A stretch of 55,775 nt of DNA from an uncultured Dehalococcoidales bacterium (GCA_964543495.1 CAZIYN010000001.1:1-55775); one strand, 5' to 3'; shown: positions 35,136-55,685, numbered from the stretch's first letter. Notes: a model not told the origin generated them from the sequence alone. Numbers and translations: made by a program.

Positions 35136-35444
35136 CTACTTTCCCTTGCTCGACTTGGCCCCGGTTTTATCCTCAACAGCGGCTATACGGCCGGACAGCT
35201 CGGTGCTGACTGCGGCACAGTGAGTCTTGAAATCACCCTGCCCCTTGGCCAGCGCTACCAGCCCGTGATCCTCGCTGCTTAATTCCTGTTTGACAGCCTT
35301 AACATCATTCTTCAGCACCGCTATGTCGCTTTTTACCTGGGCATCCTCGTTAGCCGTCGTCCTATTATCTCGCTTCCACGTGGCCAGTAGCCCAATGCCG
35401 AGGAATATCACCCCGAGTATCGCTATTCCGGTCGCTACATCCAT
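35136..35444 (-). CDS. N-terminal-TM coiled-coil protein, 102 aa
   Basis: MDVATGIAILGVIFLGIGLLATW, then a helical region. Confidence 0.6.
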   Translation of the reverse strand: MDVATGIAILGVIFLGIGLLATWKRDNRTTANEDAQVKSDIAVLKNDVKAVKQELSSEDHGLVALAKGQGDFKTHCAAVSTELSGRIAAVEDKTGAKSSKGK

Positions 35445-35456
35445 CTTGATCCCCCT

Positions 35457-35876
35457 TTATATCAAGCCCATCTTGCGCAGCGGGCTGTCCGGAGCGTCCG
35501 GCTCCACCTCCCGCCCGTCGGGCAGCGTTATCACCCCGCTGAAACACATGTGGGAGAGATCCTTCTCCGAGGGGATTATGAGCTCTCCTTTCTTGTTGAG
35601 GATGGAGTACTTCGCCATGATTTCGCTCATCGGCACACATACCTCTACTTCCTCCCCTTCCTCGGCTTTCGATATGGCTTCTTCCCCGAACTGCTCGACC
35701 GCCTTCACGTAAGCTTCCTCGCCCTCGAGAGACGTGCCCCAGATGCCATCGCCGGCTTCGTAAGAGTAGACCTCGAAGTTGGGATCTTTGTAGACTACCT
35801 CGAGCACGCCCGTCCGGTATTTGCTTTTCTGCAGTACCGCCTGAATGGAGTTGCATTCACACTTTTTCTCACTCAT
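35457..35876 (-). CDS. Hypothetical protein, 139 aa
   Basis: Minus-strand tiling ORF. Confidence 0.6.
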   Translation of the reverse strand: MSEKKCECNSIQAVLQKSKYRTGVLEVVYKDPNFEVYSYEAGDGIWGTSLEGEEAYVKAVEQFGEEAISKAEEGEEVEVCVPMSEIMAKYSILNKKGELIIPSEKDLSHMCFSGVITLPDGREVEPDAPDSPLRKMGLI

Positions 35877-36090
35877 TGCTAGCCCCCTCTTTTATCGCGC
35901 TGACAAACCTCTCTACCCCGAATAATACCATCAGGGTGGTCATTATTATCTCGGTTATGAGGACCGGCTGGTTATCTTCGTATATCATCACCTTGCCTTT
36001 GAGCTTTATCATGATTAAGTGAAATAGAACCCACCCGCATGATAAAATAACCAGTAGCCCGCTTATGACGTTTTTCATTACACTCCCCAC
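35869..36090 (-). CDS. Two-TM membrane protein, 73 aa
   Basis: Two hydrophobic helices. Confidence 0.6.
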   Translation of the reverse strand: MGSVMKNVISGLLVILSCGWVLFHLIMIKLKGKVMIYEDNQPVLITEIIMTTLMVLFGVERFVSAIKEGASNE

Positions 36091-37637
36091 TGCTCGCCTT
36101 CATCCGGCGGCAGGCCTTCTTTACGGAATATGCCTTCCAATTCGAATACCGAGCCGGCTACAAAGTTAGGCCCTGTAACTAAGGCGAGGTCAATCCGTGT
36201 AATAGCATTTAAGCTCTCCCATCGATTGGATTGAACGACAACAATATTCTCCTGCCTCCCGTGAAAAGAAATACAATGTTTATGCCTATCTGTCTCCGCA
36301 TACGACGGAAATATAAATAAGCCTCCACCGAATTCCCCTACGCCCTCATTAGCCGCTGGGCATTTTAACCAATCTTGTATAGCAAGATTTCGGTCGGATG
36401 TCACCACGGCGCCGCTTCCATATAGCCTTTGCCGGTCGTAATTCGCAACGACGGCATCTCCATTAATAGTAATAGCGATATCATCATCAAGCGCCGCCTT
36501 ATCCGATCTCGCATAGACGTTAATCTGCAGAGCTTCGAAGTTCTGGGAAATATTATCAAACGTGACAGTAGCTGTGTCCTCGGTCAGCTCTACCCTCTCG
36601 ATTATCCGCTTCGGTACCCGGTAAAGGGAGAATAAACTGCCTGCTTTGAAGTCTGTGCCATTGTTAGGCTCGTAACTTAATTTATTTATAGGTTCCGAAT
36701 TGTCTCTTCTGCCTGAACGCAGGTCAATAACACCCGTTGGTGCGGAACTCTCATGGAAACCTGTAATATTAAACAAGTGAGGCTGATTAGCCTTTGTGTA
36801 TTGTGATACTATCGAAATTAAAGAACCATACACACTGGCAGTAGCATTTACCGCAGGACAATCACCAATAATTCGGTTATTTTGGCTAACAGAAGAAACA
36901 GCTGCGCCTACCCCTCGTAATTGCTGGTTATAATAATTTGCATTTATGCTGTCTTCATTAATATTTATATTAATTGAATCCGTAACACCAACTCGGTCAC
37001 TTCTACAATAACCCACTACCGCCAAATTGCCTTCTCCCTGGGGAATATTATCAAAGACAGGTAGTCCAGCTCCTCCTGCCAAATCCACTTCTTCTACCAG
37101 GTAGCGCTCGTCTACTACTCCCAGATGGAAGGTGCTACCAGCTTGCATATTGCCTGAATTAGCGTAAACTTCAATAGAAGTAATCGCATTTACGTTTGAC
37201 CATCTTCCAGTGGTAACTTGAACTGTGGTTTCCAATGAACCGGTTAAGGACAAAAAAGCTTTCTGGTTACTTGTATTGAAGGCGTGGGGAAAAATAAGAA
37301 TACCACCGCTATAGGCATTAGCAATGTTCGTTCCATTAAAAAGGCCACTGTGGGCATAAGAAGTTGAATCATATCTACTAGCCGCAGCCGCAGCGGCCGT
37401 TCCTCTGATTTCTTGGCTAGAGTAATTATTTCCTCCATCGCCGTTTAATCTGAAGGCTATCCATCGGTCAGCCGCATCCGAGGCCGCTGCATTAATTAGT
37501 ATTACTAGATGCCTTGAAGTAATATGCTGCCGGGCATCCCAGGCTGCCACCAGGTCATCGATATTCGAGAAAGTGACACTGGCCTGGTCAGTCTCTATCT
37601 GAATTGTCTGAAGTATCTTTACAGGTGCATTAAGCAT
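36078..37637 (-). CDS. Triple-repeat beta-rich protein, 519 aa (paralog B)
   Basis: Three modules of about 170 aa each carry VTF.NI.Q..L...R.D....NGD....NY..Q.L.G.G ... RW....AIT.I.L....G.NF.AGS.F.L.G. Confidence 0.75.
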   Translation of the reverse strand: MLNAPVKILQTIQIETDQASVTFSNIDDLVAAWDARQHITSRHLVILINAAASDAADRWIAFRLNGDGGNNYSSQEIRGTAAAAAASRYDSTSYAHSGLFNGTNIANAYSGGILIFPHAFNTSNQKAFLSLTGSLETTVQVTTGRWSNVNAITSIEVYANSGNMQAGSTFHLGVVDERYLVEEVDLAGGAGLPVFDNIPQGEGNLAVVGYCRSDRVGVTDSINININEDSINANYYNQQLRGVGAAVSSVSQNNRIIGDCPAVNATASVYGSLISIVSQYTKANQPHLFNITGFHESSAPTGVIDLRSGRRDNSEPINKLSYEPNNGTDFKAGSLFSLYRVPKRIIERVELTEDTATVTFDNISQNFEALQINVYARSDKAALDDDIAITINGDAVVANYDRQRLYGSGAVVTSDRNLAIQDWLKCPAANEGVGEFGGGLFIFPSYAETDRHKHCISFHGRQENIVVVQSNRWESLNAITRIDLALVTGPNFVAGSVFELEGIFRKEGLPPDEGEQWGV

Positions 37638-39181
37638 CAGTCTATTGCCATCCCTTCATCCGGAGGGAGCCCCTCCACGCGCAGTATTCCTTCGAGTTCA
37701 ATCACCGTGCCGGCAAGGAAGTTAGGGCCATTCAGTGGGGCTATTGAGATAGATGTTATTGCATCGGTAAGCATATAGATATCCGATACTATGAAGACAG
37801 AATTGTCCGAATTGCCGTAAAGACCGAAACAGTGTTTGTAACGGTCGGTTTCAGCATATCCCGGAAATATCAGGGTGCCGCCGTCGAACTCTCCCGCGGG
37901 ACCCGTGCCGCTTACCAGCATCCAATCCTGGTCGGCATTGGTTCTTACCGCGGTAACCACGGCGCCAAACCCGTAGAGCTCCTGGGTGCTGTAATGAGCT
38001 GCAATACCATCCCCATTTATCGTAAATCTCACCGGGTCGCTGCCGGCTGCCCGGTCGGTCTTTGCATAGACGTGGAGAATAAGAGCTTCGAAGTTCTGGG
38101 GGATATTACTGATAGTAATGGAGGCCGCGGCAGCGTCCAGCTCTACCCGCTCGATAATTCGTTTCGGCACACGGTAGAGGGAGAAAAGCGAGCCAGTTAC
38201 GAAATTCGTGCCGGCATTGGGCTGATAGACTATCTTATTAACAGGCTCATCATTGGCTCTCATTCCACTCATAGTCCGAACCTCAGCCGTAGGTCCCGTG
38301 CTTTCGTGATATCCGCTTAATGATAGAAAATGAGGATGGTTACCTTTAATATACTGAGAGTAAACCGCTACAAGGGCGCCGAATACATTGGCCGTGGCAT
38401 TGGCGCCGCTGACCATACCTATTTCCTGGTTTACAGGAGATGCCGCCGCGGTAACCGCTGCCCTGGCCGTTAACTCCTGAGCAGGATAATTGCCGGCCGT
38501 CGTATCGTCGTTAATTGAATGCAGAACCTCATCTTCGACGGCCGCACCATCTGTTCGAGCGTATCCTATTAACACCAGGTCACCCTCCCCTTGGGGAATA
38601 TTATCAAATATAGCTGTCGCTGTCGGAGTTAATTCTTCCACCAGATAACGCTCGTCAATAACACCCAGGTGGAACGTGGAGCCGGCAAGGAAATTACCGG
38701 TGGTGCCCAGCAGAAGACTGATTATCGCGTTCGCGCTTGCCCACCTCCCAGCAGTCCCCTGCACCGAATAATCAGTTCCACCTCCCAGTGTCAAAATAGC
38801 CTTATGATTGACAGTATTGAAGGCGTGGGGAATGAGAATGACACCGCCGCCAAAAGAAGTAGCGCCCCAGGACGCTGCGGGTATCATTGAGGCATTATAA
38901 GCCGGCACACCGTCATTCCTTTGAGCAGCAGCCACAGCCGCTGTCCCAGTTATTTCCTGCCGGTTGTAAGTATTGCCAGAATCACCATTGAGTAGAATAT
39001 ATAAATCCCGCTGGGAAACAGCATCCTCACCAGCTGCGTTGATAATAACGACAAGGTGTCTGCTGGTTACCCGAGCGAGAGCATCCCACTCTGCTACTAG
39101 GTCGTCTATATCTGAGAAGGTGACAGTAGCCTGAGCAGTTTCTATCTCGATGGATTGCAGTATCTTTATTGGAAGGTTCAT
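37637..39181 (-). CDS. Triple-repeat beta-rich protein, 514 aa (paralog A)
   Basis: Colinear with 36078-37637. Same three-module architecture. Confidence 0.75.
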   Translation of the reverse strand: MNLPIKILQSIEIETAQATVTFSDIDDLVAEWDALARVTSRHLVVIINAAGEDAVSQRDLYILLNGDSGNTYNRQEITGTAAVAAAQRNDGVPAYNASMIPAASWGATSFGGGVILIPHAFNTVNHKAILTLGGGTDYSVQGTAGRWASANAIISLLLGTTGNFLAGSTFHLGVIDERYLVEELTPTATAIFDNIPQGEGDLVLIGYARTDGAAVEDEVLHSINDDTTAGNYPAQELTARAAVTAAASPVNQEIGMVSGANATANVFGALVAVYSQYIKGNHPHFLSLSGYHESTGPTAEVRTMSGMRANDEPVNKIVYQPNAGTNFVTGSLFSLYRVPKRIIERVELDAAAASITISNIPQNFEALILHVYAKTDRAAGSDPVRFTINGDGIAAHYSTQELYGFGAVVTAVRTNADQDWMLVSGTGPAGEFDGGTLIFPGYAETDRYKHCFGLYGNSDNSVFIVSDIYMLTDAITSISIAPLNGPNFLAGTVIELEGILRVEGLPPDEGMAID

Positions 39182-39920: not shown

Positions 39921-40214
39921 CTATGACTCGGCGACGTCTTCGTAATCGTATTCCATATTGCCGGCTGCATTGCGGTGTATACCGTAAATCTTGTATTCTC
40001 CGCTCTGCGGGTCGCTAACCATAATCTGCCGGTCGGCGTCGGCCAGCCCCATAACCGCAGTCTGAATCTCGGCTCCAGTCAGGTCCGCAGTCGCGTTATC
40101 TTCTATTCCGGAGAGCTTCGTCTGCTCGGTTGCAGACATCCGCTTGTAGGTAGACCCGTCCGGAATCCCGTCCAGATCTGAAGGAGTAATTACCTCTGCT
40201 GTCTGTTTTGCCAT
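39921..40214 (-). CDS. Small protein, 97 aa (C-terminus paralogous to 40227-40463)
   Basis: SDPQSGEYKIYGIHRNAAGNMEYDYEDV compared with SDPPSGGYKILNIWRNAAGNLEYEYEDT. Confidence 0.55.
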   Translation of the reverse strand: MAKQTAEVITPSDLDGIPDGSTYKRMSATEQTKLSGIEDNATADLTGAEIQTAVMGLADADRQIMVSDPQSGEYKIYGIHRNAAGNMEYDYEDVAES

Positions 40215-40226
40215 TGTCTTCCTCCT

Positions 40227-40463
40227 TTATGGCTCGGGCGTATCTTCATATTCGTATTCCAGGTTGCCCGCAGCGTTTCTCCATATATTCAATATTTTAT
40301 AACCACCGCTGGGAGGGTCGCTTATCAGATGTAGCCCTTCAAGGATTTCCTTTACTCTCTCATCTCGAACGGCATCCGTGCTGAGACCTCTACCAGTATA
40401 GCTTGCTCCTCCAATATCGTTTTCTCTTCCACTTGTCATATTTTCCTCTACAAGTGATTCCAT
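40227..40463 (-). CDS. Small protein, 78 aa (paralog)
   Basis: See 39921-40214. Confidence 0.55.
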   Translation of the reverse strand: MESLVEENMTSGRENDIGGASYTGRGLSTDAVRDERVKEILEGLHLISDPPSGGYKILNIWRNAAGNLEYEYEDTPEP

Positions 40464-43036
40464 ACCTTTATGTTTCCGCCTCTCAATACACAGGCAGTAG
40501 CAACAGCTCCATTATCGATTGATAATACCCAGTAACAGGCTCCCGCAGCTGCCCCTGATGGGATATTAGCCACAGTGGTAATGCTGCCTTTATATTGGTC
40601 GTTGACATAGAAACGGACTTCTACCCCGGGTATGTGAACCATCCTGACGCGATATACATATAGAGCGGTCATAGTTGTATTGAGATTAACCGTCGATCTT
40701 CCGGCATTAAAGGATTCTCCGTAGATATCGTAATTCTGTATTTCTATACCCAGTCCATCGGCTGCCAGAACTCCTTCTCCATTTGCTTGTTTGAGCTGGA
40801 ATCTACCTCTGATATCAGCATGCGAACCAGCATCCCTTGACAGGTCAATAGCATATTCTATTCGATTATCGAAATGAACCCTGTCCCACTGACCTGCGCC
40901 ATCGAAGGACGAATTCACCATTACACCCGGACAATGGAAAAGTCCATGGTCGCCTCCGGCAGCTGCGCAGGATACCTCGGCAAACGTCGTATATAACGTG
41001 CCTCCTCCTGTTCCTCCATGATTGGCCGTCCATAGAGAATTGATAGGCACCTGGAATGACCTTCCCTGCCTTTCTAATAGCTCCATAACGAATTCCGGAG
41101 TGGCGAAGATGGGATTGTCTTCCTGGTATTCAGTTATTCCATACCTCTTTATAATCCGCGTGAGAGCCGGGTTAAGAGGTCTCTCCTCTTCCAGCCTTAC
41201 CACCGGTTGCCCGGGGAAATTGGTAACGCCATGGTCGGGATTGATAATCGTCGAGAAGAGGCCGTTTATAGTGATATTATGCAAGTTCGAATTCGTAGCG
41301 AACTGGATATCCACCAGCCCCGCGTCTACATCGAAATCCCTCAGTATCCAGCCGTCCTGTGCCCCGGCAGTTATTACCGGTGTTACTCCATCAAGCGTGA
41401 TCCGGGTTGATAGTCCAGCACCGAATATTTCCACGTCATCTATTGCCCTGAGTACTTGAGCGGTAAGGGCAAAAGTGCCATACCCGAGTTCAATCTTTCC
41501 TCCGCCGACTGACAAAGCATTCAGGGCATGCTGGATCTGCATGCCGGAATGAACCTGGAAGTGTCCCGGGTCTTTCCTCAAAACAACGTTTGCGTTTGCC
41601 AGGTTGACGGTACTGCCGGCAGTGGTTTCATCCGAGTCGCCATCAAGCTCTATTAATCCGGAAGCGGCTACCTCGAATAATGAGACTTGCTGGCCAGCCC
41701 ACCTGTTTCCACCTCCGGAAATAGTGGCTGCTGCGATATTAACATACATCATCACGCCCTGGTCACAGGTGAAATCGTTTCCGATAAGGATACCATCCGC
41801 AGCGGCTGTATCAACATGTATGAGATGGAATCCGGCGGCGCCACTGGCAATATTACCGTAGTTATGCTTAAGGCTGAAATTTCCACCACCGGTTATATCC
41901 CATACCTGATGAGCAAAAGCGCCAGGCGTAATGATTTCTATTCTTACTCTTTCGAAGGTAAAAGAAGCCGCAGCTCCGCCGTCAGTGATGAGGGTTCGAG
42001 CCTGCGACGGGCTGTCGAGCTGGATGGTCACGTTTTCGATTTCCTGGTAACCAGCTGCTAAGGTGATTATATCATCGTCATCAAACTGGTAGAGCCGGAC
42101 AGCATTCCCCGGCCCTATACCTTTCAAATGAACATAGGTATTCATGGTGATGTTTTCGTTATAGATTCCAGGATGTATAAGGACAGTATAAGGATTCGCC
42201 GCCGCGGGTACCGGAGCATCGGCAGCCGCCATGTCAATAGCGTCCTGTATCCACATCCCTTCGTAAACTTCGTATTGCTGTTTCCCGTTTTTAAGGCAGA
42301 CAGTACCGCCCACGATATTTTCAGCCGCCTCGGTAGTTACCGAATCATTGTTGAAAACGATGGTTCCATTGGTAACGCTGAACATACGACCAGTGCCGGC
42401 CCATCGATTTCCGCCTCCGGTTATGGTGCTTGCCACCAGGCAGAGCACATGGGTAGAGTTGGCATTCTGGAAGGTGAAATTATTGTTTATCAGGTGGATA
42501 GTTGCAGGGTTATTCTGGCTGGTAACGGTATAAGATCCTCCGGTACCTCCGATATTGTGATAGCAATTCTCTACCCGGAGGTCCGTCCCATTTCCTTCAA
42601 TAACAAAAACATTGATTACTACTGCGCCCGGTGTGGTCACCTCGAAAATCACATTTCGAAGGACAGTACTGACTGCAGCAGCACCATCCCGGACATGTGC
42701 ACGCCCCCCTGCCGGGGTGCCCATACGCAGAGTAACATTCTCAACTTCACCATCGTCAATAGTGAGAATATTATTATCGTTCTGGTATATGACAACAGAT
42801 CCGGAAGGGCCCATACCCTTCAGGTGAACGTTAGCTGCCATGGTGATAGTTTCGTCGTAAATGCCAGGCCATATCTGCACTGTATAAGGAGCCGCGGCTG
42901 ATGGTGCCGGCACCGCCTGCGTAGCGCACCAGTTAATTGCCGCCTGAATCGTTATAAATTCCGACAGACCGCCCGGGGCAATGCCTACCCGCACAGTTCG
43001 CGGCATTCTTTTCAGTTTAGCGTCTATCTCTGCCAT
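40448..43036 (-). CDS. Spike/depolymerase-like protein with two beta-helix domains, 862 aa
   Basis: The internal duplication PYTVQIWPGIYDETITMAANVHLKGMGP / PYTVLIHPGIYNENITMNTYVHLKGIGP is typical of pectate-lyase-fold entry segments. Confidence 0.55.
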   Translation of the reverse strand: MAEIDAKLKRMPRTVRVGIAPGGLSEFITIQAAINWCATQAVPAPSAAAPYTVQIWPGIYDETITMAANVHLKGMGPSGSVVIYQNDNNILTIDDGEVENVTLRMGTPAGGRAHVRDGAAAVSTVLRNVIFEVTTPGAVVINVFVIEGNGTDLRVENCYHNIGGTGGSYTVTSQNNPATIHLINNNFTFQNANSTHVLCLVASTITGGGNRWAGTGRMFSVTNGTIVFNNDSVTTEAAENIVGGTVCLKNGKQQYEVYEGMWIQDAIDMAAADAPVPAAANPYTVLIHPGIYNENITMNTYVHLKGIGPGNAVRLYQFDDDDIITLAAGYQEIENVTIQLDSPSQARTLITDGGAAASFTFERVRIEIITPGAFAHQVWDITGGGNFSLKHNYGNIASGAAGFHLIHVDTAAADGILIGNDFTCDQGVMMYVNIAAATISGGGNRWAGQQVSLFEVAASGLIELDGDSDETTAGSTVNLANANVVLRKDPGHFQVHSGMQIQHALNALSVGGGKIELGYGTFALTAQVLRAIDDVEIFGAGLSTRITLDGVTPVITAGAQDGWILRDFDVDAGLVDIQFATNSNLHNITINGLFSTIINPDHGVTNFPGQPVVRLEEERPLNPALTRIIKRYGITEYQEDNPIFATPEFVMELLERQGRSFQVPINSLWTANHGGTGGGTLYTTFAEVSCAAAGGDHGLFHCPGVMVNSSFDGAGQWDRVHFDNRIEYAIDLSRDAGSHADIRGRFQLKQANGEGVLAADGLGIEIQNYDIYGESFNAGRSTVNLNTTMTALYVYRVRMVHIPGVEVRFYVNDQYKGSITTVANIPSGAAAGACYWVLSIDNGAVATACVLRGGNIKVWNHL

Positions 43037-43047: not shown

Positions 43048-43434
43048 TTAACTCTTTCTCGCCATGGCGAACAGACCAAGCCCCACGGCTCCGAGTAAGA
43101 GAACCGTAGCCGGCACTCCTCCTCCGGATACCCTCACCACGGTCTTAGCCGAGCTGTCCTGCCCCCACATAGTATCACCCGCTTCACACCAGCATTGAGC
43201 AACGATTTCAGCATTCTTATCCGGCATGACGAACGAAAGAGGCCAGGAAACACTGGCCCCGGGTATAATCGTCTTCTCGTAGGTCCCCGGGATTACCTCT
43301 CCGTTAACCGTAACCACCGGCTCGGCGTAGAGTGTCCAGCCATGCACGCTCGTTATCACAACCTCAAAATATACGGTCTCGCCCGGAACAAATCTCCCGC
43401 CGGACACCTCTATAGCAATCTGAGTTATATTCAT
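43048..43434 (-). CDS. Beta-rich protein with C-terminal TM anchor, 128 aa
   Basis: AAGGGGGG SD before ATG 43434. C-terminus VPATVLLLGAVGLGLFAMARKS. Confidence 0.55.
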   Translation of the reverse strand: MNITQIAIEVSGGRFVPGETVYFEVVITSVHGWTLYAEPVVTVNGEVIPGTYEKTIIPGASVSWPLSFVMPDKNAEIVAQCWCEAGDTMWGQDSSAKTVVRVSGGGVPATVLLLGAVGLGLFAMARKS

Positions 43435-43445
43435 ATTATCCCCCC

Positions 43446-44249: not shown

Positions 44250-44261
44250 TTTATCCTCTCC

Positions 44262-46887: not shown

Positions 46888-46900
46888 TCAGAGCCTCCCT

Positions 46901-47291: not shown

Positions 47292-47855
47292 CTACAGGTG
47301 GGCCGTAGCCGGCACCCTAGTCCACACTTCCGGTAAATTCCCCGCTTTCCAGTTATACTGGGTTTCCGCATCGAGAACGTACCGGTACCCCCAGAAGACC
47401 ACCCTCGCCTGGGTAAGGGCGTAAGAGGTGTTGTTGGTAGCCTGCATGAACGCCCAGTTATCCTCATACTCGTAAAACTCGGACTGATGCCCATCAGGGT
47501 CGAACAGCGGAGAAAACCTGCTCAGTGTGGCTACCCGGTTCTGGAGCTTGTGTCTCTGGTCCGCCCTGCCCTGGTAGAGAATAACCTCCACGTCGTCGAG
47601 AACCTCAGCCCTGAACTGGCCGAACTCGGCGTCAGGCATCTGCAGCAGGGTCAGTTGCGTGATACCGGTAGTCCCGCCTGCAGCCAGAGCGCCGAGGTCT
47701 ATGGTGATGGGGTTGGACCGGTTCAGCGGTTCAATGAAAGCCACCCTGTAGAACTCATACACCTTGTTAACCCATATGCCGACAATTTCGCCGGGCACCA
47801 CGATCTGCTCGACCGGGCCCCCTTTATAGGTAAAAACCTGTGGTAACGCTGGCAT
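47292..47855 (-). CDS. Beta-rich protein, 187 aa (capsid-type candidate)
   Basis: Minus-strand tiling ORF. No motif recognised. Confidence 0.6.
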   Translation of the reverse strand: MPALPQVFTYKGGPVEQIVVPGEIVGIWVNKVYEFYRVAFIEPLNRSNPITIDLGALAAGGTTGITQLTLLQMPDAEFGQFRAEVLDDVEVILYQGRADQRHKLQNRVATLSRFSPLFDPDGHQSEFYEYEDNWAFMQATNNTSYALTQARVVFWGYRYVLDAETQYNWKAGNLPEVWTRVPATAHL

Positions 47856-47870: not shown

Positions 47871-48716
47871 TCATACTCCACCCTCATCGGACGGCTCTTC
47901 ACCGAGACCGACCGAGGGCGTCATGGGATTTACAAGCATCCTTATCTCCGCCTCCCTGTCCCAGTTCTCGTTAAGCTGCTCCTGCCAGAGGAAATGCCCC
48001 CCTCCGAGTTGGACCAGCTTAGCAGACTCGACATCGTTATGGTAGGCATACTCAAAGAGCTTCTGCGGCTCCATCTCGAGTAAAATCATGGTGGCGATGA
48101 AGCCCTGGGTATTAATATACGAACTTCCCTCAATAGCCGACTTCATCTTCTCGATGTTATCCTTCACCTTATCGGTGGTGCTGTTATTGATGAAAGCCCG
48201 GTATCCTTCTTTCTCAATCTTACCGATGGGCCTGTTACAGACATCTAAGGGGACTATCCTGGTAACTCCGTAAGCCTGGCAAACCAGCGGGCGGACCGGA
48301 TGTATCAGGCAGGTCTTGTCCTCAGCGAGCATCGGGCAGCCGCTTTTCTGCGCCAGCCACACGACCTCCTGGTTAAGCTGGTCGATGATATGCGGCGGCA
48401 TCCTAGTAGTGCCAAAGCCGTACCGGGTACCTACCTTTTCAAACTTCTCGAAAAGCCATTTCCGGCAGGCTTCCAAAACGCGGTTCCTTACTTCCGTCTT
48501 CTGCTTTTTCAGCCAGTTGGAGATATACCTGGCCTCGATTCCCTTTATCGTTATCGAGTTAATCTCGCAGCACTTGCCACAGTTAGGCATGCAGACCGGT
48601 ACACCTATAATCTTGACGAACTCCTTCTCCGCAACAGAAAGCCAGGCGTGAGCTTCACCGAGATACTTTATCGCAGGGTCATGCCCATTTCTCGAAAACA
48701 TCACCAGTACCCCCAC
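47871..48716 (-). CDS. YkgJ-family (CxxCxxCC) cysteine-cluster protein
   Basis: MPNCGKCCEINSITI and CPMLAEDKTCLIHPVRPLVCQAYG match the UPF0153/YkgJ signatures. Confidence 0.75.
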   Translation of the reverse strand: MGVLVMFSRNGHDPAIKYLGEAHAWLSVAEKEFVKIIGVPVCMPNCGKCCEINSITIKGIEARYISNWLKKQKTEVRNRVLEACRKWLFEKFEKVGTRYGFGTTRMPPHIIDQLNQEVVWLAQKSGCPMLAEDKTCLIHPVRPLVCQAYGVTRIVPLDVCNRPIGKIEKEGYRAFINNSTTDKVKDNIEKMKSAIEGSSYINTQGFIATMILLEMEPQKLFEYAYHNDVESAKLVQLGGGHFLWQEQLNENWDREAEIRMLVNPMTPSVGLGEEPSDEGGV

Positions 48717-49144
48717 CTTTCGAGCCTCCTGGCAACCGCATCGTCTTCAAGCCAAATTTCTTCCGGAAGAACGTAATCCACCTTATTGCCCCTCAGTTCT
48801 ATAATTTTCTGGGCGTGCGTAATAGTGGTCGGCACGCCGAAGACGGTATAGAAGTCGCAGCGCGGGCACTTATACGCTATATCCATAGCGTAAGGCCTGT
48901 TGGCCGCCGGGTCTTCGTCTCTTGCTCCTTTTTCAAGATTGGCAATCCTGACATCAGCCACCGTATGAATCCGGCTCCGCCTCATCCTCATCTCCACCTT
49001 TATCGATGGCTCGCGAGCCTTGCACATGGGGCAGTAGATAGGCTCCTTGGAAACGATTCCTACCGGTTCATCCACCTCCACCCAGCATTCGTTTTTCACG
49101 AGTTCGGGGCGATCCTCTTCTTTTCTCACTTTTACCTCCACCAT
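48701..49144 (-). CDS. Cys-containing protein, 147 aa
   Basis: CPMC..(50)..CPRC. Confidence 0.6.
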   Translation of the reverse strand: MVEVKVRKEEDRPELVKNECWVEVDEPVGIVSKEPIYCPMCKAREPSIKVEMRMRRSRIHTVADVRIANLEKGARDEDPAANRPYAMDIAYKCPRCDFYTVFGVPTTITHAQKIIELRGNKVDYVLPEEIWLEDDAVARRLERWGYW

Positions 49145-49208: not shown

Positions 49209-49685
49209 TTACTTCTGTCGAGATATTATGAGTTGCGCCGAAGCCTTCTTTCCGGCAGTGGTCGCCGTGGCTATCGCCATCCCTATCTGCTTACCGGCGG
49301 GAACATATATCCTCTGGTTCAGCGGTATGACGTTACGGCTCGTTGTAAGAGCCAGGTCACCCGGAACCTCAGCCAGTACCTGACCAACCGCTGTAATAGC
49401 GGTGGCCGTGGTAATCGCTACCTGGTACTGAAGAGCGGCAGTAGTAGCCGCCGAGAGGATAATCCCCTCAATCCAGCACTCGGTGGTATTGGCAGTCGCC
49501 GAAATGGCCGTAACCACAGCGCCGAAAGCCCAGGTAGAGCCGACACCCGTTGCAGCCTGCAGCTGCGTTGGTGCTATGGAAGCCAGTCCGGCTCCATGGG
49601 GGATGAAAGTCACGAACGTTCCACCGTTGGCCCGTGTTAGCCAGGGAGTAATACTCGACAGCATCCGCTTGATAAAAGCCATCAT
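49209..49685 (-). CDS. Small beta-rich protein, 158 aa (paralog pair, capsid-type candidate)
   Basis: Shares FIPHGAGL, ATANTTECWIEG(I/V)IL and TTATA motifs with 49697-50167. Confidence 0.65.
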   Translation of the reverse strand: MMAFIKRMLSSITPWLTRANGGTFVTFIPHGAGLASIAPTQLQAATGVGSTWAFGAVVTAISATANTTECWIEGIILSAATTAALQYQVAITTATAITAVGQVLAEVPGDLALTTSRNVIPLNQRIYVPAGKQIGMAIATATTAGKKASAQLIISRQK

Positions 49686-49696
49686 CGCTATCTACC

Positions 49697-50167
49697 TCAC
49701 TTGTTCCTCGATATTACTACCCAGACGTCACACGTCTTGCCGCCGGAGGACTCGGCAAGCTGGCAGCCTATCGGCACGCCAGCCGGAATATGAACGCGCT
49801 GTCCCAGAGGCACGTAATCCACGTCCGTAACGAGGTTGCCATGATACGCTATCTCCCCGGCGATCTGCGCTGCCGCTGTAACGGCCGCCGTCGCCGTGGT
49901 GACGAGAACGTAGTAATGTTTATTCGCCACCTGGGGATTGGCAAGTATCACGCCCTCGATCCAGCACTCGGTCGTGTTAGCCGTAGCAGCCAGCACATTG
50001 GCCAGCGCCCCGTACACATTGGCTGCGCCGCCCGTCAGGGTCTTGGCAGCCGCACCGAGCAAGCCGGCTCCATGTGGGATATATGTAGTGAAAATACCGG
50101 CCTGGGCACGGTTAACGACCGGGATAATGCTCTGGAAAGTGCGTTTAACCTGTCCTGGTAAACCCAT
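49697..50167 (-). CDS. Small beta-rich protein, 156 aa (paralog pair)
   Basis: See 49209-49685. Confidence 0.65.
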   Translation of the reverse strand: MGLPGQVKRTFQSIIPVVNRAQAGIFTTYIPHGAGLLGAAAKTLTGGAANVYGALANVLAATANTTECWIEGVILANPQVANKHYYVLVTTATAAVTAAAQIAGEIAYHGNLVTDVDYVPLGQRVHIPAGVPIGCQLAESSGGKTCDVWVVISRNK

Positions 50168-50243: not shown

Positions 50244-50813
50244 TTAGCTTACGACTCCGCCCACTCGCTCTATGATGAGGCAGCCGAATCCCAGCTCCTC
50301 ACCACCGGCAGGCGTCGCTGCCCTGCCGTAGAAATCGATGTTTAACTGGTCCTGGGGATCATAGACCACCGGCTCACTGAACCAGGCTTCCGGCTCGAGC
50401 TTGCAGTCTATGAGATTCTGGATAAAGAAGTTAGCCTTGGTAGTAGCCGCCATCAGAAGGAACCGCACCGCGGTAGTCATGGGGTTCGCTGATGCGTCGT
50501 AGACCTTGTAGAAGACAGCCACCCTGCCGACCGGCAGGAACGGATCCAGAGCAGCCGCAAGCCCGTAAGCGCTCGCCCAGGCACCGGCACCGACGGCAGC
50601 CGGCGTCCGGTAATACTCGAGGGCATAGCCGGAACCGGCAAGCACCACCGCTCCGAGGTCGGTAGCCGGTAATGCCTCTCTCCACACCATTTCCTCGTCC
50701 GATGCCGCGATTCCTTTAGCCTTTGCCCTCGCAATGCCCGCAGCAAGAGCCATTGTCTTGTACTGCTTGATATCCGTCAGGGTTATTTCGTTGGTAGGTA
50801 TTGCATAACTCAT
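50244..50813 (-). CDS. Ala/Gly-rich beta protein, 189 aa (capsid-type candidate)
   Basis: Minus-strand tiling ORF flanked by strong hairpins. Confidence 0.65.
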   Translation of the reverse strand: MSYAIPTNEITLTDIKQYKTMALAAGIARAKAKGIAASDEEMVWREALPATDLGAVVLAGSGYALEYYRTPAAVGAGAWASAYGLAAALDPFLPVGRVAVFYKVYDASANPMTTAVRFLLMAATTKANFFIQNLIDCKLEPEAWFSEPVVYDPQDQLNIDFYGRAATPAGGEELGFGCLIIERVGGVVS

Positions 50814-50848: not shown

Positions 50849-51178
50849 TTAGACCAGTCGGGCGCCTCCAAAAGGCTGCTCAACTAGAGGAGCCGGCCAG
50901 CGCGAAACTGTCTTTGTCGCCAGGCGCGTAGTTACGGGAGAACCGAACTGAGCCATGGCCCATCTGTAGATGGACTTGGCGGCCCAGGGCATCGAAGCGA
51001 TCCCCATGTTCTTCATGAAATCGCCTCCATAACCCATCATTGCCGCTCCGTAGCTGCCTCCTGCCATAACCAGGGAAACTGGAACATTCCAGTCGGGAGC
51101 TGTAGCCTCCGTAATCAGGTCAACAGCGGCAACCGCCACGGGAGCTCCGACATCCTCCACCAATCTTATCCTCGCCAT
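50849..51178 (-). CDS. Gly/Ala/Met-rich small protein, 109 aa
   Basis: GGAGGAGG SD. Confidence 0.6.
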   Translation of the reverse strand: MARIRLVEDVGAPVAVAAVDLITEATAPDWNVPVSLVMAGGSYGAAMMGYGGDFMKNMGIASMPWAAKSIYRWAMAQFGSPVTTRLATKTVSRWPAPLVEQPFGGARLV

Positions 51179-51354: not shown

Positions 51355-52650
51355 TTATTTCGTCTTTTTCTTTTCTCCGGTTAACAGGGCAAGCAAAGCA
51401 GCTCCCCCAGCTACCACACCGGCTATCAGCCACGGAAATCCTCCGCCCTCTCCTTCCTCCGGCGGTACCTCGCCCTCTCCCGGAGGTGCCGCTCTCAAGA
51501 CAACGCTTACCGAATCACCGATAACATGCCAAGGCATCTTATCGAGCTCGACTTCACCCGCCTTAACCGTCCGCCTTATTGCGGTCCCGATTACATGCCA
51601 GTGCTCCAGCTCAACCCCCGAGGATTTCACCGTCCGCCTTATCGCCGTACCTATAACGTGCCAGTGCTCGGCTTCTCCAGCCGAAACCAGCTCGAACCTG
51701 GCAATCACGTAAAGGTCGGTGTTCATAGTGATAACTTTCACCGAACCCGTCCCGGAAATATCTCCCGTCCAAGCCGAGAACTTATATCCCTCGTTAGCCA
51801 CTGCCTCGAGGGTAACCTCGGTTCCAGTGGGATAGAGATTCATGTAGGGCTCCCGGGTCACCTGGCCGGCACCAGCCGGTATTACCTCCGTGACAAGGTT
51901 TTTATCCTCTATCACGGTCGTTTTCTTAAAACGAGCGATTACATAGGTATCCCTCTCCATGAAGATAGTTATAGAGCTATTACGGTCGTCGACGTCGCCG
52001 GCCCACGCCTCGAATCGGTATCCGGTGGTCGGGACTGCAGTGAGGGTCACGTAGGTGCCTTCCATGTAGGCATTCGCCTGCGGGTTCCTTGTTATGGCCC
52101 CGCCGTTCGCCGGAGACACCTCGGTTTCCAGTGAATAATAGACATCGCTCGGTGGCGGAGGTTCTTCCGGAGGTTCCTCGAACTTCACAACGATATTTTT
52201 ATCCCGATCCATCGTAATACGGATTTTATCGGTACCGATATAATCGGCGCCCTGGATATCCCCGCCCCAGCCGAGAAGTGTCTGGCCGGCGCCCGGGTAA
52301 GCCACCAGTATAACCTGGCTGCCCTTGTCGAATGTCCCCTCGGACGGCAGAACACTGCCATTGCCTATAACATCGGTGGTGAGCTGCACCAGGTCCTCGG
52401 AGTATGAGCCGAAGACCGCCGTTACCGTCTTGTTGCTATTCATGGTAACGGTGACGACCTCGGCACTACCCGAGACGTCGCCCTCCCAGTGATCGAGATA
52501 TCCGAGATTCAGGGCCGGAAGAGCCCTGAGTGAAACTACAGTACCCTCAGCATACTCCATGGCGCCGGGTCCCACGTAATTGCCGGTGGGAGTCGGCTGC
52601 ACACTTCCTGAACTGGCAGGACTAATGTAAATCTGCAGCTTGTAAGCCAT
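51355..52650 (-). CDS. InlB-B-repeat surface protein with C-terminal TM anchor, 431 aa
   Basis: Four G.V....G.Y..GT.V.L.A.P..GY.F..W.GD.....T..M modules, EHWHVIGTAIRRTVK repeats, then FPWLIAGVVAGGAALLALLTG-EKKKTK. Confidence 0.6.
   Translation of the reverse strand: MAYKLQIYISPASSGSVQPTPTGNYVGPGAMEYAEGTVVSLRALPALNLGYLDHWEGDVSGSAEVVTVTMNSNKTVTAVFGSYSEDLVQLTTDVIGNGSVLPSEGTFDKGSQVILVAYPGAGQTLLGWGGDIQGADYIGTDKIRITMDRDKNIVVKFEEPPEEPPPPSDVYYSLETEVSPANGGAITRNPQANAYMEGTYVTLTAVPTTGYRFEAWAGDVDDRNSSITIFMERDTYVIARFKKTTVIEDKNLVTEVIPAGAGQVTREPYMNLYPTGTEVTLEAVANEGYKFSAWTGDISGTGSVKVITMNTDLYVIARFELVSAGEAEHWHVIGTAIRRTVKSSGVELEHWHVIGTAIRRTVKAGEVELDKMPWHVIGDSVSVVLRAAPPGEGEVPPEEGEGGGFPWLIAGVVAGGAALLALLTGEKKKTK
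51544..51669. repeat. 63-bp tandem repeat x2 (plus a degenerate third) inside a CDS
   Basis: Encodes EHWHVIGTAIRRTVK(SSG/AGE)VEL twice, then PWHVIGDSVSVVLR. Confidence 0.8.
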
Positions 52651-53087
52651 TATCCCTCCCAGGGCGGTTTAGAGTAATCGGTGGTATGAGCGCTGCCCCA
52701 TGGTGTTATAACGAGGGATATGTCCCCATCGGGCATCGTTGGACTCCGCGGGTTATCAAGCGTCATTACTCCGGAAGCCTGCGCTCCGAACAGCTGGGTA
52801 TTATCATATACCTTTATCCCTCCACCTTCCGCCGTAATACCGAAGACCCAGCTGGTCATCGGAAAACCGTACTCGGGCCAGCTGACTTCGTAGCTTGCCT
52901 TTATATCGAATTTAGACCCCGCCGAAACCTCGGTAACTCTCTGTCCTCCTACCTCGACCCAGGCATCGGTTATAACGGCCGACATGCCAGGACTACCTAT
53001 CTTCGAGCTCAGCCCGGAGCCCCTTTTCATGATAAGCTCTACCGACCTCGGCTGCTGTTTTTCCTCATCCTGTCTTCTCTGCGTCAT
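52650..53087 (-). CDS. Beta-rich protein, 145 aa
   Basis: Minus-strand tiling ORF. Confidence 0.6.
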   Translation of the reverse strand: MTQRRQDEEKQQPRSVELIMKRGSGLSSKIGSPGMSAVITDAWVEVGGQRVTEVSAGSKFDIKASYEVSWPEYGFPMTSWVFGITAEGGGIKVYDNTQLFGAQASGVMTLDNPRSPTMPDGDISLVITPWGSAHTTDYSKPPWEG

Positions 53088-53497
53088 GTTGACCTCCTGA
53101 AAGCTCTTATTCCGAAAAAGGTCGCCGCCCCTACGACACCCAGGGCCAGTATCATAGCTCCCGAAAACGCCGCCGGGCTATCCCTGTAAAGCTGCCAGCT
53201 GACTATTACGATAGCAAGAACTATCAGCAGCGGGATTATCACCCCGACGATTACCGGCAGCCAGGGAAAACCCTTTTTGAAAAATATATTCATGACAGGG
53301 CTACCCTTGGTTACCTTTACGTCGGGAATGCCGGCTGCATCGAGGGCGTTCTGAACAGTATCGACAACACCCTGTGAGACGGGACTCCGCAGGTTCAACC
53401 TCAACTTAGCCCTGCCTCCCTCGGGTATCAGTTCGTCATACTGCTTCATCCCGCTCTGGAAATCCAGCAGGCCTCCGCTCGCAACTTCCTCCCACAT
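53084..53497 (-). CDS. Two-TM membrane protein, 137 aa
   Basis: WLPVIVGVIIPLLIVLAIVIV and AMILALGVVGAATFFGI helices. Confidence 0.6.
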   Translation of the reverse strand: MWEEVASGGLLDFQSGMKQYDELIPEGGRAKLRLNLRSPVSQGVVDTVQNALDAAGIPDVKVTKGSPVMNIFFKKGFPWLPVIVGVIIPLLIVLAIVIVSWQLYRDSPAAFSGAMILALGVVGAATFFGIRAFRRST

Positions 53498-53500
53498 ATA

Positions 53501-53956
53501 TCACCTCGGTTTAACCGGAGCACCCGGAGAGAACCGGACCGGCTCATCTCCTATACCGCTCTGCGTGAGATCGGTACCATAGATATCCGATGACTTCCGG
53601 TAAAGATGTCCGCCCGATTCGAAAAGCCCCCCTATTTTTACCTCACTGAAAATGGGACCGGCAGGAATCGCTTCAGCCAGCGCTGGAGCTTCTTCTTTCT
53701 CAGGTTCCTCTTCGACTACTTCCTCTACCGGCGGCTCTTCTGCCGGCGGCTCTTCTGCCGGCGGCTCTTCTGCCGGCGGTTCCTCTGCCGGCGGTTCTTC
53801 TGCCGGCGGTTCTTCTACCGGTGGCTCTTCTGCCGGCGGTTCCTCTGCCGGCGGTTCCTCTGCCGGCGGTTCTTCTACCGCGGGCTCCTCTTCGGTCTTT
53901 ACTTCCTCAACGGGCTTCTCTTCTTCCGTTTTTTTCTTTTTACCACGAGTTTCCAT
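53501..53956 (-). CDS. (EEPPA)n repeat protein, 151 aa
   Basis: Ten EEPP(A/V) pentapeptides followed by a globular C-terminus. Confidence 0.6.
   Translation of the reverse strand: METRGKKKKTEEEKPVEEVKTEEEPAVEEPPAEEPPAEEPPAEEPPVEEPPAEEPPAEEPPAEEPPAEEPPAEEPPVEEVVEEEPEKEEAPALAEAIPAGPIFSEVKIGGLFESGGHLYRKSSDIYGTDLTQSGIGDEPVRFSPGAPVKPR
53726..53875. repeat. 15-bp tandem repeat x10 inside a CDS
   Basis: Units of ggcggctcttctgcc and variants encode EEPPA/EEPPV. Confidence 0.85.
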
Positions 53957-53969
53957 TTGATTTACCTCC

Positions 53970-54509
53970 CTATTCGTAGGAAGCTTCTCTCTCTCCGAGC
54001 TTCCTCACACGTTCGTTCTCAGACTCAAGCGTTTTACTCGAGATAACATCCCCCGGATGGAACACCGTTTTGCCGGGGTCCTTAACCGTATGATACTTTA
54101 TTTTCTCCCCGCCTCCGGACAGCTCCTTTATCATTTCCTCGAACATGACCTTGTGAGCGCATTCCTCCTCGGCAATTATAGCCATCTTCGCGGCAAGATA
54201 CTTCTTATCATTTTTCTTCAGGTCATCGGCAAGGCTATGATAAAGATGGCAGGCGTCATGTTCCTCTTCAACGTTTGCCTTAAGCTTATCAATAATCTGC
54301 TTAATCTCTTTATCTCCCACTTTCTTACCTCTACCGTAAACCTTCGCCCAGAGCCTGTTGTGCATATCCCTGGCTACCGGCCAGTTAAGGAAGTCCGGCA
54401 AGTCCCGCTCGGTAAGAGGCACCTTGGCCGCCTTGGCAGCTCTTCGGATATCTTTCATCAGGATATCCCACCGCTCGACCTCGTCCTTACCCGCAGGATT
54501 GTCAGGCAT
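53970..54509 (-). CDS. Ferritin-like (ExxH x2) helical protein, 179 aa
   Basis: NVEEEHDACHLYH and IIAEEECAHKVMFEE suggest a di-iron four-helix bundle. Confidence 0.45.
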   Translation of the reverse strand: MPDNPAGKDEVERWDILMKDIRRAAKAAKVPLTERDLPDFLNWPVARDMHNRLWAKVYGRGKKVGDKEIKQIIDKLKANVEEEHDACHLYHSLADDLKKNDKKYLAAKMAIIAEEECAHKVMFEEMIKELSGGGEKIKYHTVKDPGKTVFHPGDVISSKTLESENERVRKLGEREASYE

Positions 54510-54803
54510 CTACGTCTTCCTGGTTGCTATTATTACTCCGAGACCCAGTATTAAAGCAGCCCCGATAATACCAACGGCAGTACCTGCACCAGGAGACTGT
54601 TCTATCCTGCGGCGCCCCGATATTACGGTTCCGGCAGCTTCCTCCTCCCACCAGACACGGCGCCTTGATGACCCGAACTGGCTGGACATCCTCGTCCTGC
54701 CGGTGCCCCTCTCCGGAAGAGGAGTCCCCGGGTACAGGTCTTCATGCCTCGCCGCCCTCTCTTCCTCACTCCTCGGATTTCCATAACGATAATTCATCAT
54801 CAC
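54510..54803 (-). CDS. C-terminal-TM protein, 97 aa
   Basis: AVGIIGAALILGLGVIIATRKT. Confidence 0.55.
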   Translation of the reverse strand: MMMNYRYGNPRSEEERAARHEDLYPGTPLPERGTGRTRMSSQFGSSRRRVWWEEEAAGTVISGRRRIEQSPGAGTAVGIIGAALILGLGVIIATRKT

Positions 54804-55447
54804 CTCTTCTTCCCTTCGATATATGCGAAATCAAGATAATCCTTCAGCCAGGTGGAATACATAGGAACAGCCGTGAAGGGTTCCATTACAGTCCTGCCTT
54901 CCACAGCGTAACACTCTTTGTCATTGAAATAGTGGACCGGCTCGTAGCGGTCCGCCACGGAAGCGAGGACCAGCGCCGGCACATCGGGCCTGGTGCTCTC
55001 CGAGATATAGTTGCGGCCGTTCATTTTTACCTCGACCCAGGCATGACCTCCCGCTTTCCCGTTGTAGAGGTTACCGAGAACACAGTGGACATCGCTGGGG
55101 GACAGATCATTTCTCAAAAGTGAAGTCAGGAGGAATGCCTTATTCGCGCAGTTACCAACGCCGACATTCTTTGTCAGGCTCGGCATCATCCAGAGGTCTC
55201 TTTGGACAGAGTTTTTCCCCTCGATAGAAAGCCGTCCGGAAATGAAAGGCTTATAGCGGATCTGCTGGGAAACCCACCTGTGGCAGGCGTTTATCTTCTC
55301 CTGAGGGAGAATTTTATTAGCGGTAAGCTGCTTGTATAGAGACTTAACTTCAAGGGCATCGGGAGTTATATACTCGGTAAGCCAGTGTCCCTGCCTGAAG
55401 AAAGAGGCCTCGATAGGCTGATCGTCAATCCGAATTCTGCTCTCCAC
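54800..55447 (-). CDS. Transglutaminase-like cysteine peptidase
   Basis: VGVGNCANKAFLLTSLLR (Cys), GGHAWVEV (His) and a downstream Asp form the transglutaminase-core triad pattern. Confidence 0.7.
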   Translation of the reverse strand: MESRIRIDDQPIEASFFRQGHWLTEYITPDALEVKSLYKQLTANKILPQEKINACHRWVSQQIRYKPFISGRLSIEGKNSVQRDLWMMPSLTKNVGVGNCANKAFLLTSLLRNDLSPSDVHCVLGNLYNGKAGGHAWVEVKMNGRNYISESTRPDVPALVLASVADRYEPVHYFNDKECYAVEGRTVMEPFTAVPMYSTWLKDYLDFAYIEGKKR

Positions 55448-55448
55448 A

Positions 55449-55685
55449 TTAACCCCTCGCTTTCGCTTCGAGAAGTCTCTGCCCTCTTTCGGTAGCCCCT
55501 TTCAGGGCACCGCCGAACAGCATGCCGAGGAAGAAACCGAGCCCCCCGGCAAACAAGGGAGTCGGGATACTCACGCCCTGGATAGCTTCCAGCCGGGTGC
55601 CGCAGTTAGCACAGACGACCTGCTCTCCGATTTCCTGGATCTTGATAGGGTACCCGCAAACTGCGCAATCAGTTATCTCCGCCAT
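55449..55685 (-). CDS. Zinc-ribbon plus TM mini-protein, 78 aa
   Basis: CAVCG..(14)..CANCG, then LFAGGLGFFLGMLFGGAL. AGGAGGGAG SD. Confidence 0.6.
   Translation of the reverse strand: MAEITDCAVCGYPIKIQEIGEQVVCANCGTRLEAIQGVSIPTPLFAGGLGFFLGMLFGGALKGATERGQRLLEAKARG

Follow-up and report, generated by a model that had tools for sequence, protein, structure and literature searches.

The contig CAZIYN010000001.1 of assembly GCA_964543495.1, assigned to an uncultured Dehalococcoidales bacterium, raises the question of what kind of particle, if any, can be encoded by a long operon of structural-looking genes in which no mark of a tailed phage is recognised. The whole stretch of 55,775 bp (approximately 52% GC; hereafter the window) was analysed, with the emphasis on the block 55685-35136, a co-directional chain of about 33 open reading frames (ORFs) on the minus strand, labelled here from g1 (55449-55685) to g33 (35136-35444). 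To our knowledge every bacterial double-stranded DNA (dsDNA) virus of this size is a tailed phage, and the non-tailed viruses, which are small, have a jelly-roll capsid protein and an ATPase in common. We propose, with a probability of roughly 0.45, that the block together with the segment 4283-2080 constitutes the "late" module with which a temperate virus of an undescribed, non-tailed lineage, probably one with a membrane, forms its particle. The evidence excludes the reading as a tailed phage, weakens the reading as a surface module and makes a novel virion the best available, albeit unproven, explanation.

The completeness of the sequence is established by one feature:

1-55 and 55721-55775: direct terminal repeat, exact identity over 55 nt, found by comparison of both ends

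Such a repeat is the usual mark of a circle assembled past its own start, hence the window is a complete circular genome of 55,720 bp and no hallmark gene can hide outside it. Both the repeat and the circularity had been overlooked in the initial annotation, whose statement that phage hallmarks are absent gains strength from them. Almost every gene of the window lies on the minus strand. Since a GGAGG-type ribosome-binding site is placed 5-10 nt upstream of most ORFs of the block, these may be taken as real genes. Two earlier ORF calls at the distal end have been revised: 35365-35856 had been read in the wrong, Arg/Gly-rich frame, the true gene being 35457-35876 (g32'), and ORF 34925-35176 is judged doubtful.

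Scanning of the block against Pfam, PHROGs and NCBIfam revealed no terminase, portal, HK97 or double-jelly-roll capsid protein and no FtsK/HerA match, and the remaining genome, scanned against Pfam and PHROGs, was likewise devoid of any capsid, portal or packaging hallmark. Only five ORFs of the genome reach 400 amino acids (aa), and each of them is explained by other domains or internal repeats: 8520-9782, encoding an AAA_25 replicative-helicase-like protein, the sole P-loop NTPase recognised, g8 (51355-52650), g23 (40448-43036), g29 (37637-39181) and g30 (36078-37637). Other domains are also present in most of the ORFs of 250-400 aa, the exceptions without an informative match being 2474-3499, 3480-4283, 10112-10897, g21 and 24445-25392. 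A six-frame search for the Walker A pattern [AG]xxxxGK[ST] returned six matches, four in short non-genic frames and two inside g11 and g20, where they are chance occurrences in beta-sandwich proteins without NTPase context. The earlier claim that no packaging ATPase is encoded holds in substance; its wording, that the motif is found nowhere in the window, was literally wrong. Profile scans and the audit of the ORFs of at least 400 aa bear out the view that no ORF resembles a large terminase or a portal, and the predicted absence of an HK97-like capsid protein agrees with the lack of any profile match and with the modelled g11 and g15, which are beta-sandwiches and not HK97 folds.

In terms of virus taxa, the large terminase, portal and HK97-fold capsid protein of Caudoviricetes are all missing at the profile level. 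For the double-jelly-roll capsid protein of Bamfordvirae there is neither a Pfam or PHROG match nor an unassigned ORF of fitting size, and the FtsK/HerA (A32-like) packaging ATPase of Bamfordvirae and Helvetiavirae was found neither here nor consistently in the modules of relatives. The genome lacks every known capsid and packaging hallmark. Large Walker A-bearing ORFs near the modules of relatives were considered as terminases and rejected, the one in locus L028 being a DinG-type helicase and the others adhesin- or glycosidase-like.

These results bear on the idea of a tailed phage so extremely divergent that profiles no longer recognise its terminase, portal and HK97 capsid protein. Distant homologs can indeed escape profile searches, and the non-block half encodes an HNH endonuclease and a DUF5131 protein, both common in tailed phages. 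However, in a complete genome with all ORFs of at least 400 aa accounted for, with other domains in most of the 250-400-aa ORFs, with no functional-looking P-loop in real ORFs beyond the AAA_25 protein and with no sheath, tube or tape-measure candidate in the profile scans, such a phage is extremely improbable. As the genome is complete and leaves no ORF for a large terminase, portal or HK97 capsid protein, the negative part of the earlier interpretation (not a tailed phage) is well supported.

The positive case begins with the conservation of the block, scored in a comparison set of 27 related loci (labels L001 etc.). Six genes, g2, g9, g10, g15, g16 and g17, form a collinear core:

54800-55447, minus strand: g2, core transglutaminase-fold (papain-like) enzyme (Pfam Transglut_core, 7.6e-6; 22 of 27 relatives)
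50849-51178, minus strand: g9, small Ala/Gly/Met-rich core protein (20 of 27, collinear)
50244-50813, minus strand: g10, 189 aa, the most conserved core protein (25 of 27)
47292-47855, minus strand: g15, core 187-aa jelly-roll-like beta-sandwich (21 of 27)
45956-47263, minus strand: g16, g17 and g18, small core proteins of 120, 182 and 127 aa (19, 15 and 8 of 27, collinear)

The core is conserved down to 30-47% identity and each core family has 100-260 relatives, all from metagenomes. For g15, 109 homologs of 50-75% identity were found; for g10, the protein search gave 162 homologs, and a profile search run exhaustively over 1.84 billion representative proteins gave 262 clusters, nearly all of 170-205 aa. 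The g10 protein had no Pfam, PHROG or PDB-sequence match, and 112 distant members of its family, compared with Pfam and PHROGs, belong to no family there. As a candidate, g10 is proposed for the major shell protein and g15 for a second shell or vertex protein. The gene g9 is always found directly upstream of g10. In g2 the Cys (GNCANKA) and His (GHAWVEV) motifs are intact, so the enzyme may act as a maturation protease or a cross-linker.

The interval between g10 and g15 holds one to five ORFs, mostly of 148-190 aa, in every relative; here it is filled by a pair of paralogs:

49209-50167, minus strand: g11 and g12, 156 and 158 aa, 42% identical (jelly-roll-like eight-stranded sandwich in the g11 model)

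Both are poorly conserved: g11 has 10 homologs only, and iterative hidden Markov model searches connect to it only some of the ORFs that occupy this slot in relatives.

Downstream of the core the operon becomes variable. All genes after g21 (g22-g33), including g23 and g29/g30, are unconserved among the 27 loci. The genes from g19 onwards include the following:

44855-45940, minus strand: g19, six-bladed LVIVD beta-propeller without signal peptide (Pfam LVIVD, 5.1e-46; phrog_22523)
43048-44855, minus strand: g20 (fibronectin type III (FN3)-like by eye only; 10 of 27), g21 (N-terminal hydrophobic helix; 7 of 27) and g22 (C-terminal transmembrane anchor)
40448-43036, minus strand: g23, 862-aa repeat protein with weak pectinesterase-type beta-helix motifs (not conserved)
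36078-39181, minus strand: g29 and g30, 52%-identical paralogs of 514 and 519 aa with repeated domains of about 170 aa (variable)

At the distal positions of relatives, Beta_helix/NosD, Dockerin, GH114, GH123, fn3, Laminin_G_3, PEGA, Glug and CarboxypepD_reg domains are encoded, which are typical of virion host-recognition proteins. Virion modules are laid out in this way, with a conserved core of small proteins first and rapidly evolving genes of adhesin or depolymerase type after it. The g23 protein may be a spike or a depolymerase; its profile gave only a weak pectinesterase motif among PDB sequences. The g29/g30 pair, for which a role in host recognition is suggested, has no Pfam or PHROG family, and the g29 profile found nothing among PDB sequences. 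The initial annotation had listed propeller, Ig-like, spike, lectin and FN3 proteins in this region: the LVIVD propeller of six blades in g19 is solid, as are the InlB B-repeats of g8, the beta-helix of g23 is weak, and neither FN3 nor lectin domains in the window were confirmed by Pfam even at lenient thresholds. The adjacent small proteins g24 and g25 (39921-40463) share a 32-residue C-terminal motif, GGYKI.NI.RNAAGN.EY.YED, with 66% identity, and a similar motif recurs in the relative from IMG/VR (L010, approximately 13700).

At its other end the module does not stop at g1. Three genes are conserved beside g1-g2 in L060, L080, L093 and L009 (blastp and synteny):

3480-4283, minus strand: acidic repeat protein (relatives' counterpart about 200 aa)
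2474-3499, minus strand: 341-aa coiled-coil protein with a C-terminal zinc ribbon (relatives about 325-377 aa)
2080-2481, minus strand: 133-aa protein (relatives about 125 aa)

As this trio, in which no family matches were found (2080-4283), directly precedes g1-g2 in relatives, the module spans the circular junction and extends to approximately 4283, which the initial annotation, in placing its limits, had missed. A 48-bp repeat in 2.1 copies (3840-3940) encodes an acidic duplication in the 3480-4283 protein and resembles the repeat of g5.

Structural predictions were obtained for two of the small proteins. The AlphaFold model of g15 (46 sequences; predicted local distance difference test score (pLDDT) 83.6, predicted template modelling score (pTM) 0.77) is an eight-stranded beta-sandwich, and that of g11 (alignment of 10 sequences; pLDDT 70, pTM 0.64) has eight strands preceded by a disordered N-terminal arm of 40 residues. 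All Foldseek matches of both were jelly-roll-type sandwiches and weak (E 2e-4 to 3e-2, template modelling score at most 0.42), comprising non-viral proteins (gingipain adhesin domain, PHR, GOLD, TNF-like lectins and carbohydrate-binding modules (CBMs)) as well as viral ones (VP2 of infectious bursal disease virus, coat proteins of bromo-, tymo-, tombus- and picornaviruses, and phage fibre domains). As modelled, g11 and g15 appear jelly-roll-like without a close structural relative, a fold compatible with a capsid protein and not diagnostic of it. The earlier proposal of small jelly-roll proteins is supported for these two, and their assembly into a capsid over an internal membrane stays an inference. 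The family profiles of g10 and g15 found nothing among PDB sequences, and capsid proteins of the Sulfolobus polyhedral virus 1 (SPV1) type had no match in PHROGs or BFVD. In profile-profile comparison with hhalign the g10, g11 and g15 families proved unrelated. For g7 (52650-53087) a sub-threshold Pfam match to MSP1_barrel, a jelly-roll domain of a viral major structural protein, was noted at chance level (E 0.047). In distant relatives, single chains carry two full g10 domains in tandem (P0279, residues 5-195 and 206-399; P0365; P0381), as would be expected of subunits arrayed side by side; such chains recall, by analogy, the transition from single to double jelly-rolls.

The placement of the proteins in the cell was assessed by a hydropathy scan, in which eight transmembrane proteins are firm (g1, g3, g6, g8, g22, g27, g31 and g33) and two or three borderline, against the "at least nine" counted earlier. 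Among them are:

55449-55685, minus strand: g1, zinc ribbon with a C-terminal transmembrane helix (homologs in 7 of 27 relatives)
53084-53497, minus strand: g6, two C-terminal transmembrane helices (10 of 27)
51355-52650, minus strand: g8, four InlB B-repeats and a C-terminal transmembrane anchor (residues 405-423), no signal peptide (Pfam Flg_new_2, 2.1e-42)
35136-36090, minus strand: g31, two transmembrane helices, holin-like by topology only, together with g32' (35457-35876) and g33
35136-35444, minus strand: g33, N-terminal transmembrane helix and coiled coil (hydropathy scan)

In g1, g3, g8 and g22 a single C-terminal anchor is preceded by the bulk of the protein, which is probably cytoplasmic, and no N-terminal signal peptide was detected in g10, g11, g12, g15, g18, g19, g20, g23, g29 or g30. 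Propeller, InlB-repeat, beta-helix-like and numerous transmembrane proteins speak for the second option of the initial annotation, a mobile element whose module encodes secreted proteins or a decoration of the cell surface, such as adhesins or an S-layer-like coat. Yet the lack of signal peptides in these ten soluble beta-rich proteins and the mostly C-terminal anchoring of the membrane proteins argue against a Sec-exported surface module, and no secretion-system genes were found in Pfam and NCBIfam scans. Weakened further, in its plasmid-borne form, by the absence of conjugation and partition genes and of any plasmid match, this explanation is very improbable. The topology of the C-tail-anchored proteins is consistent with assembly in the cytoplasm on a membrane patch, which would parallel the internal-membrane phages PRD1 and PM2.

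Outside the block the genome has a phage-like character, and a temperate way of life and a probably bacterial host are suggested by some of its genes and by expression signals. Features of this kind are:

30969-31802, minus strand: tyrosine integrase (Pfam Phage_integrase, 6.1e-17)
17012-17085 and 17578-17649, minus strand: tRNA-Gly(GCC) and tRNA-Met(CAT), flanking a 150-aa ORF in the early/replication region
55705-55726, minus strand: intrinsic terminator-like hairpin of 9 pairs (8 GC) followed by TTTTTT, which parts the upstream operon from g1

The integrase provides the context for a temperate lifestyle. The host is probably a bacterium, as judged from the phage-type beta clamp (phrog_947, 3.4e-44; 24-26% identity to clamps of Rhizobium, Microcystis and Acinetobacter phages), from DnaB, RusA and Ku in relatives, from the strong Shine-Dalgarno sites and from the intrinsic terminator. 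A scan for sigma-70 promoters gave a result no better than chance. In the relative L012 (IMGVR_UViG_3300037067_015217) Ku and, by eye, an ATP-dependent DNA ligase are encoded at 16301-19071, downstream of an integrase. Near the integrase of the window, 28520-29880 and 32921-33546 are without a convincing ORF and may be origin or attachment regions; no iterons or notable repeats were found in the gene-poor 28400-30000.

Relatives of the element are common in metagenomes and nearly missing from reference collections. The block had no megablast match among 50,697 GenBank phage records, g10 and g15 had no tblastn match in the same records, and g10 had none in 72,556 plasmid records (PLSDB). A profile scan of metagenome contigs retrieved 129 relatives. 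The sources of relatives include Loki's Castle deep-sea sediment (SDBS, SDBU, SDBV), a landfill sample and a Danish soil bin labelled Gallionella. The longest contigs of the profile scan cluster at 44.7-66 kb, and protein searches add two more, of 66.8 kb and 81 kb. The offset of g10 differs among the longest contigs, and this, with the clustering of sizes, would be expected of permuted circles with a fixed genome size. Nothing relevant to the family or to its features was found in the literature searched. A contig from another sample, Ga0172380_10000934 (52,540 bp), is near-identical to the lone relative in IMG/VR.

The size of these genomes also speaks to the possibility of a helper-dependent satellite, which would depend on an unrelated helper virus for its capsid and packaging machinery and itself supply only accessory and host-recognition proteins. 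Such an element would account for a complete genome with an integrase and without capsid, portal and terminase genes. Known satellites are roughly 5-20 kb long, far below 45-66 kb, and the element has a conserved structural-looking operon of its own of 20-25 kb and no recognised small terminase, cos/pac mimicry or capsid-redirecting genes, so that we consider a satellite improbable.

Of more weight is the proposal that the mobile element is not viral but a plasmid or a non-conjugative integrative element, in which the module would build an intracellular or membrane-associated assembly, or vesicles that carry the element, and no true capsid; plasmid pR1SE of Halorubrum (approximately 50 kb), which is carried in membrane vesicles, may serve as a model. 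Two features are relevant here:

22002-25815, minus strand: PRTRC-type ubiquitin-like cassette (ThiF/E1-like protein, JAB-like PRTRC_A, E2-like PRTRC_B (Prok-E2_D) and ubiquitin-like PRTRC_C)
53970-54509, minus strand: g4, ferritin/rubrerythrin-like two-helix di-iron motif (Pfam Rubrerythrin, 2.9e-6)

PRTRC cassettes are usually reported from plasmids and integrative elements; the matches of A, B, C and ThiF here are mostly below the curated cut-offs, and the cassette includes a 315-aa protein (24445-25392) without assignment. The g4 protein weakly resembles the ferritin-like cargo of protein nanocompartments (encapsulin-associated ferritin-like protein, NCBIfam, 1.9e-4, under the cut-off). 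Together with the lack of any capsid or packaging homolog, the many transmembrane proteins, the commonness of jelly-roll sandwiches outside viruses and the single relative in IMG/VR, these points keep such an element in play. Against it stand the absence of g10 from the plasmid records, the presence of two tRNAs and of replication genes of PHROG type, the hypervariable end of the operon with its adhesin/depolymerase genes, which is typical of virions, and the sizes of the longest contigs, mostly 45-66 kb (one of 81 kb). Moreover, Pfam scans of the genome revealed no relaxase, type IV coupling protein or VirB4-type ATPase, nor were other type IV secretion system genes or the partition genes parA and parB detected; neither a conjugative plasmid or integrative and conjugative element nor a plasmid in general can be recognised by its usual genes. 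We regard a non-viral element as unlikely, if still worth serious consideration.

Were the element a virus with a non-tailed particle, g10 would form a protein shell in the cytoplasm with g15 and g11-like proteins, and a lipid layer, as an internal membrane or as an envelope, would be recruited by the tail-anchored and two-helix membrane proteins. Host recognition could fall to vertex or surface spikes made of the propeller, beta-helix and multi-domain proteins, g2 might process or cross-link the shell, and the coiled-coil protein 2474-3499 and the acidic proteins may be scaffold-like factors. Because no packaging NTPase is encoded, the 55.7-kb genome is proposed to be enclosed by co-assembly or condensation and not pumped into a preformed capsid. 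All these functional roles are inferred; the completeness of the genome, the missing hallmarks, the conserved core, the two predicted folds and the topology are the parts that are shown. More tentatively still, and with greater doubt than the assignment of the module itself, the group may represent a new lineage of high rank among prokaryotic, probably bacterial, dsDNA viruses, with genomes mostly of approximately 45-66 kb, a shell of hitherto unknown small proteins (g10 with g15/g11-type proteins) around or under a lipid layer, and no packaging NTPase.

Several points weigh against a virion. The particle is deduced from genes alone, and we know of no dsDNA virus of this size that lacks both a packaging NTPase and a nucleoprotein-type capsid protein. 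The matches of the g11 and g15 models are generic, lectin or CBM domains fitting them equally well. No lysin was identified, and the PRTRC cassette is of a type typical of plasmids and integrative elements. IMG/VR, with 2.9 million viral contigs, holds a single relative (52.5 kb, 30-47% identity). Among 185,579 species genomes the only match is a 10-kb contig binned as Gallionella and without host flank, so that this host label depends on binning of that contig only.

Compared with known systems, the element fits no virus family and would work most like the membrane-containing jelly-roll viruses, with Portogloboviridae the nearest in principle. Sulfolobus polyhedral virus 1 of this family has circular dsDNA, single-jelly-roll capsid proteins of small size, a lipid layer and a nucleoprotein core, and no packaging ATPase can be identified in it. 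The element shares the circular dsDNA and the lack of a packaging ATPase and would, as predicted, have small jelly-roll-like proteins and a membrane component too; however, Portogloboviridae have an archaeal hyperthermophile host and a 20-kb genome, whereas the element is of about 56 kb with bacterial-type replication genes and an integrase, and PHROGs showed no sequence or profile similarity between them. Helvetiavirae (Matshushitaviridae, with the Thermus phages P23-77 and IN93; Sphaerolipoviridae/Simuloviridae) have adjacent small jelly-roll genes, an internal membrane with several small transmembrane proteins, vertex spikes and temperate members, in all of which the element may resemble them. 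Their pair of adjacent jelly-roll genes would have its counterpart in the paralogs g11/g12, with a jelly-roll-like model, generic Foldseek matches and poor conservation. They differ in a conserved FtsK/HerA-type (A32-like) ATPase and genomes of 16-31 kb, while the element has no such ATPase and no sequence relationship to them.

Tectiviridae, Corticoviridae and Autolykiviridae are also non-tailed, with spikes and with membrane proteins lacking signal peptides under a jelly-roll shell, but neither their double-jelly-roll capsid protein of about 270-400 aa nor their packaging ATPase was found in the element, their genomes measure 10-15 kb, and double-g10 fusions comparable to such capsid proteins occur in distant relatives only. 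Plasmaviridae, Pleolipoviridae and pR1SE have a membrane-enclosed genome, transmembrane and spike proteins, no capsid protein or terminase and a temperate or plasmid-like existence; in contrast to the element, of conserved soluble beta-sandwich core proteins they have few or none, and they live in wall-less bacteria or haloarchaea. The element does encode transmembrane proteins and large variable proteins, but no sequence similarity to these groups or to vesicle-forming plasmids was detected. With Caudoviricetes the element shares the genome size, integrase, tRNAs, HNH endonuclease, beta clamp, DUF5131 and a late operon, transcribed in one direction, whose last genes are variable and receptor-binding-like, and from them it is set apart by the large terminase, portal and HK97-fold capsid protein missing from its complete genome.

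The alternatives that matter are a new virion architecture, possibly a new realm, and a new route of intercellular transfer for a mobile element. A new lineage, if real, would belong to none of the current virus realms and would escape detection by virus markers. The contrast between 129 metagenome relatives, one relative in IMG/VR and none in GenBank phage and plasmid collections marks a blind spot, and the near-absence from virus catalogues indicates that marker-based virus discovery misses the group, which deserves attention since it is widespread, consistent in genome size and overlooked by current catalogues.

Two further features of the module are:

53501-53956, minus strand: g5, acidic (P)EEPPA repeat protein (15-bp tandem repeat in 10.7 copies, 53720-53880)
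47871-49144, minus strand: g13 (zinc ribbon) and g14 (CxxCxxCC/YkgJ-type metal-binding protein; Pfam CxxCxxCC, 6e-7)

The pair g13/g14 is variable and found in L001-L003 only. The tandem repeat of g5 gives rise to spurious terminator-like hairpins on the plus strand. In the non-block half, DUF1643, a 3'-phosphoadenosine 5'-phosphosulfate (PAPS) reductase and an excisionase-like helix-turn-helix protein were also recognised by Pfam and PHROGs. In L080 (contig Ga0180007_10003177) a BadF/BcrA-type ATPase, split by an intein with a LAGLIDADG domain, is encoded on the minus strand at 5-2080, about 5 kb upstream of g1-g2. The genes at 36-1866 on the minus strand of the window are an insertion between the conserved upstream trio and g1, missing from relatives; they encode a membrane protein with DUF2061, two proteins with a PAPS-reductase and a Zn_ribbon_8 domain respectively, and one of 251 aa that weakly resembles enzymes of the phosphoethanolamine-transferase/sulfatase type.

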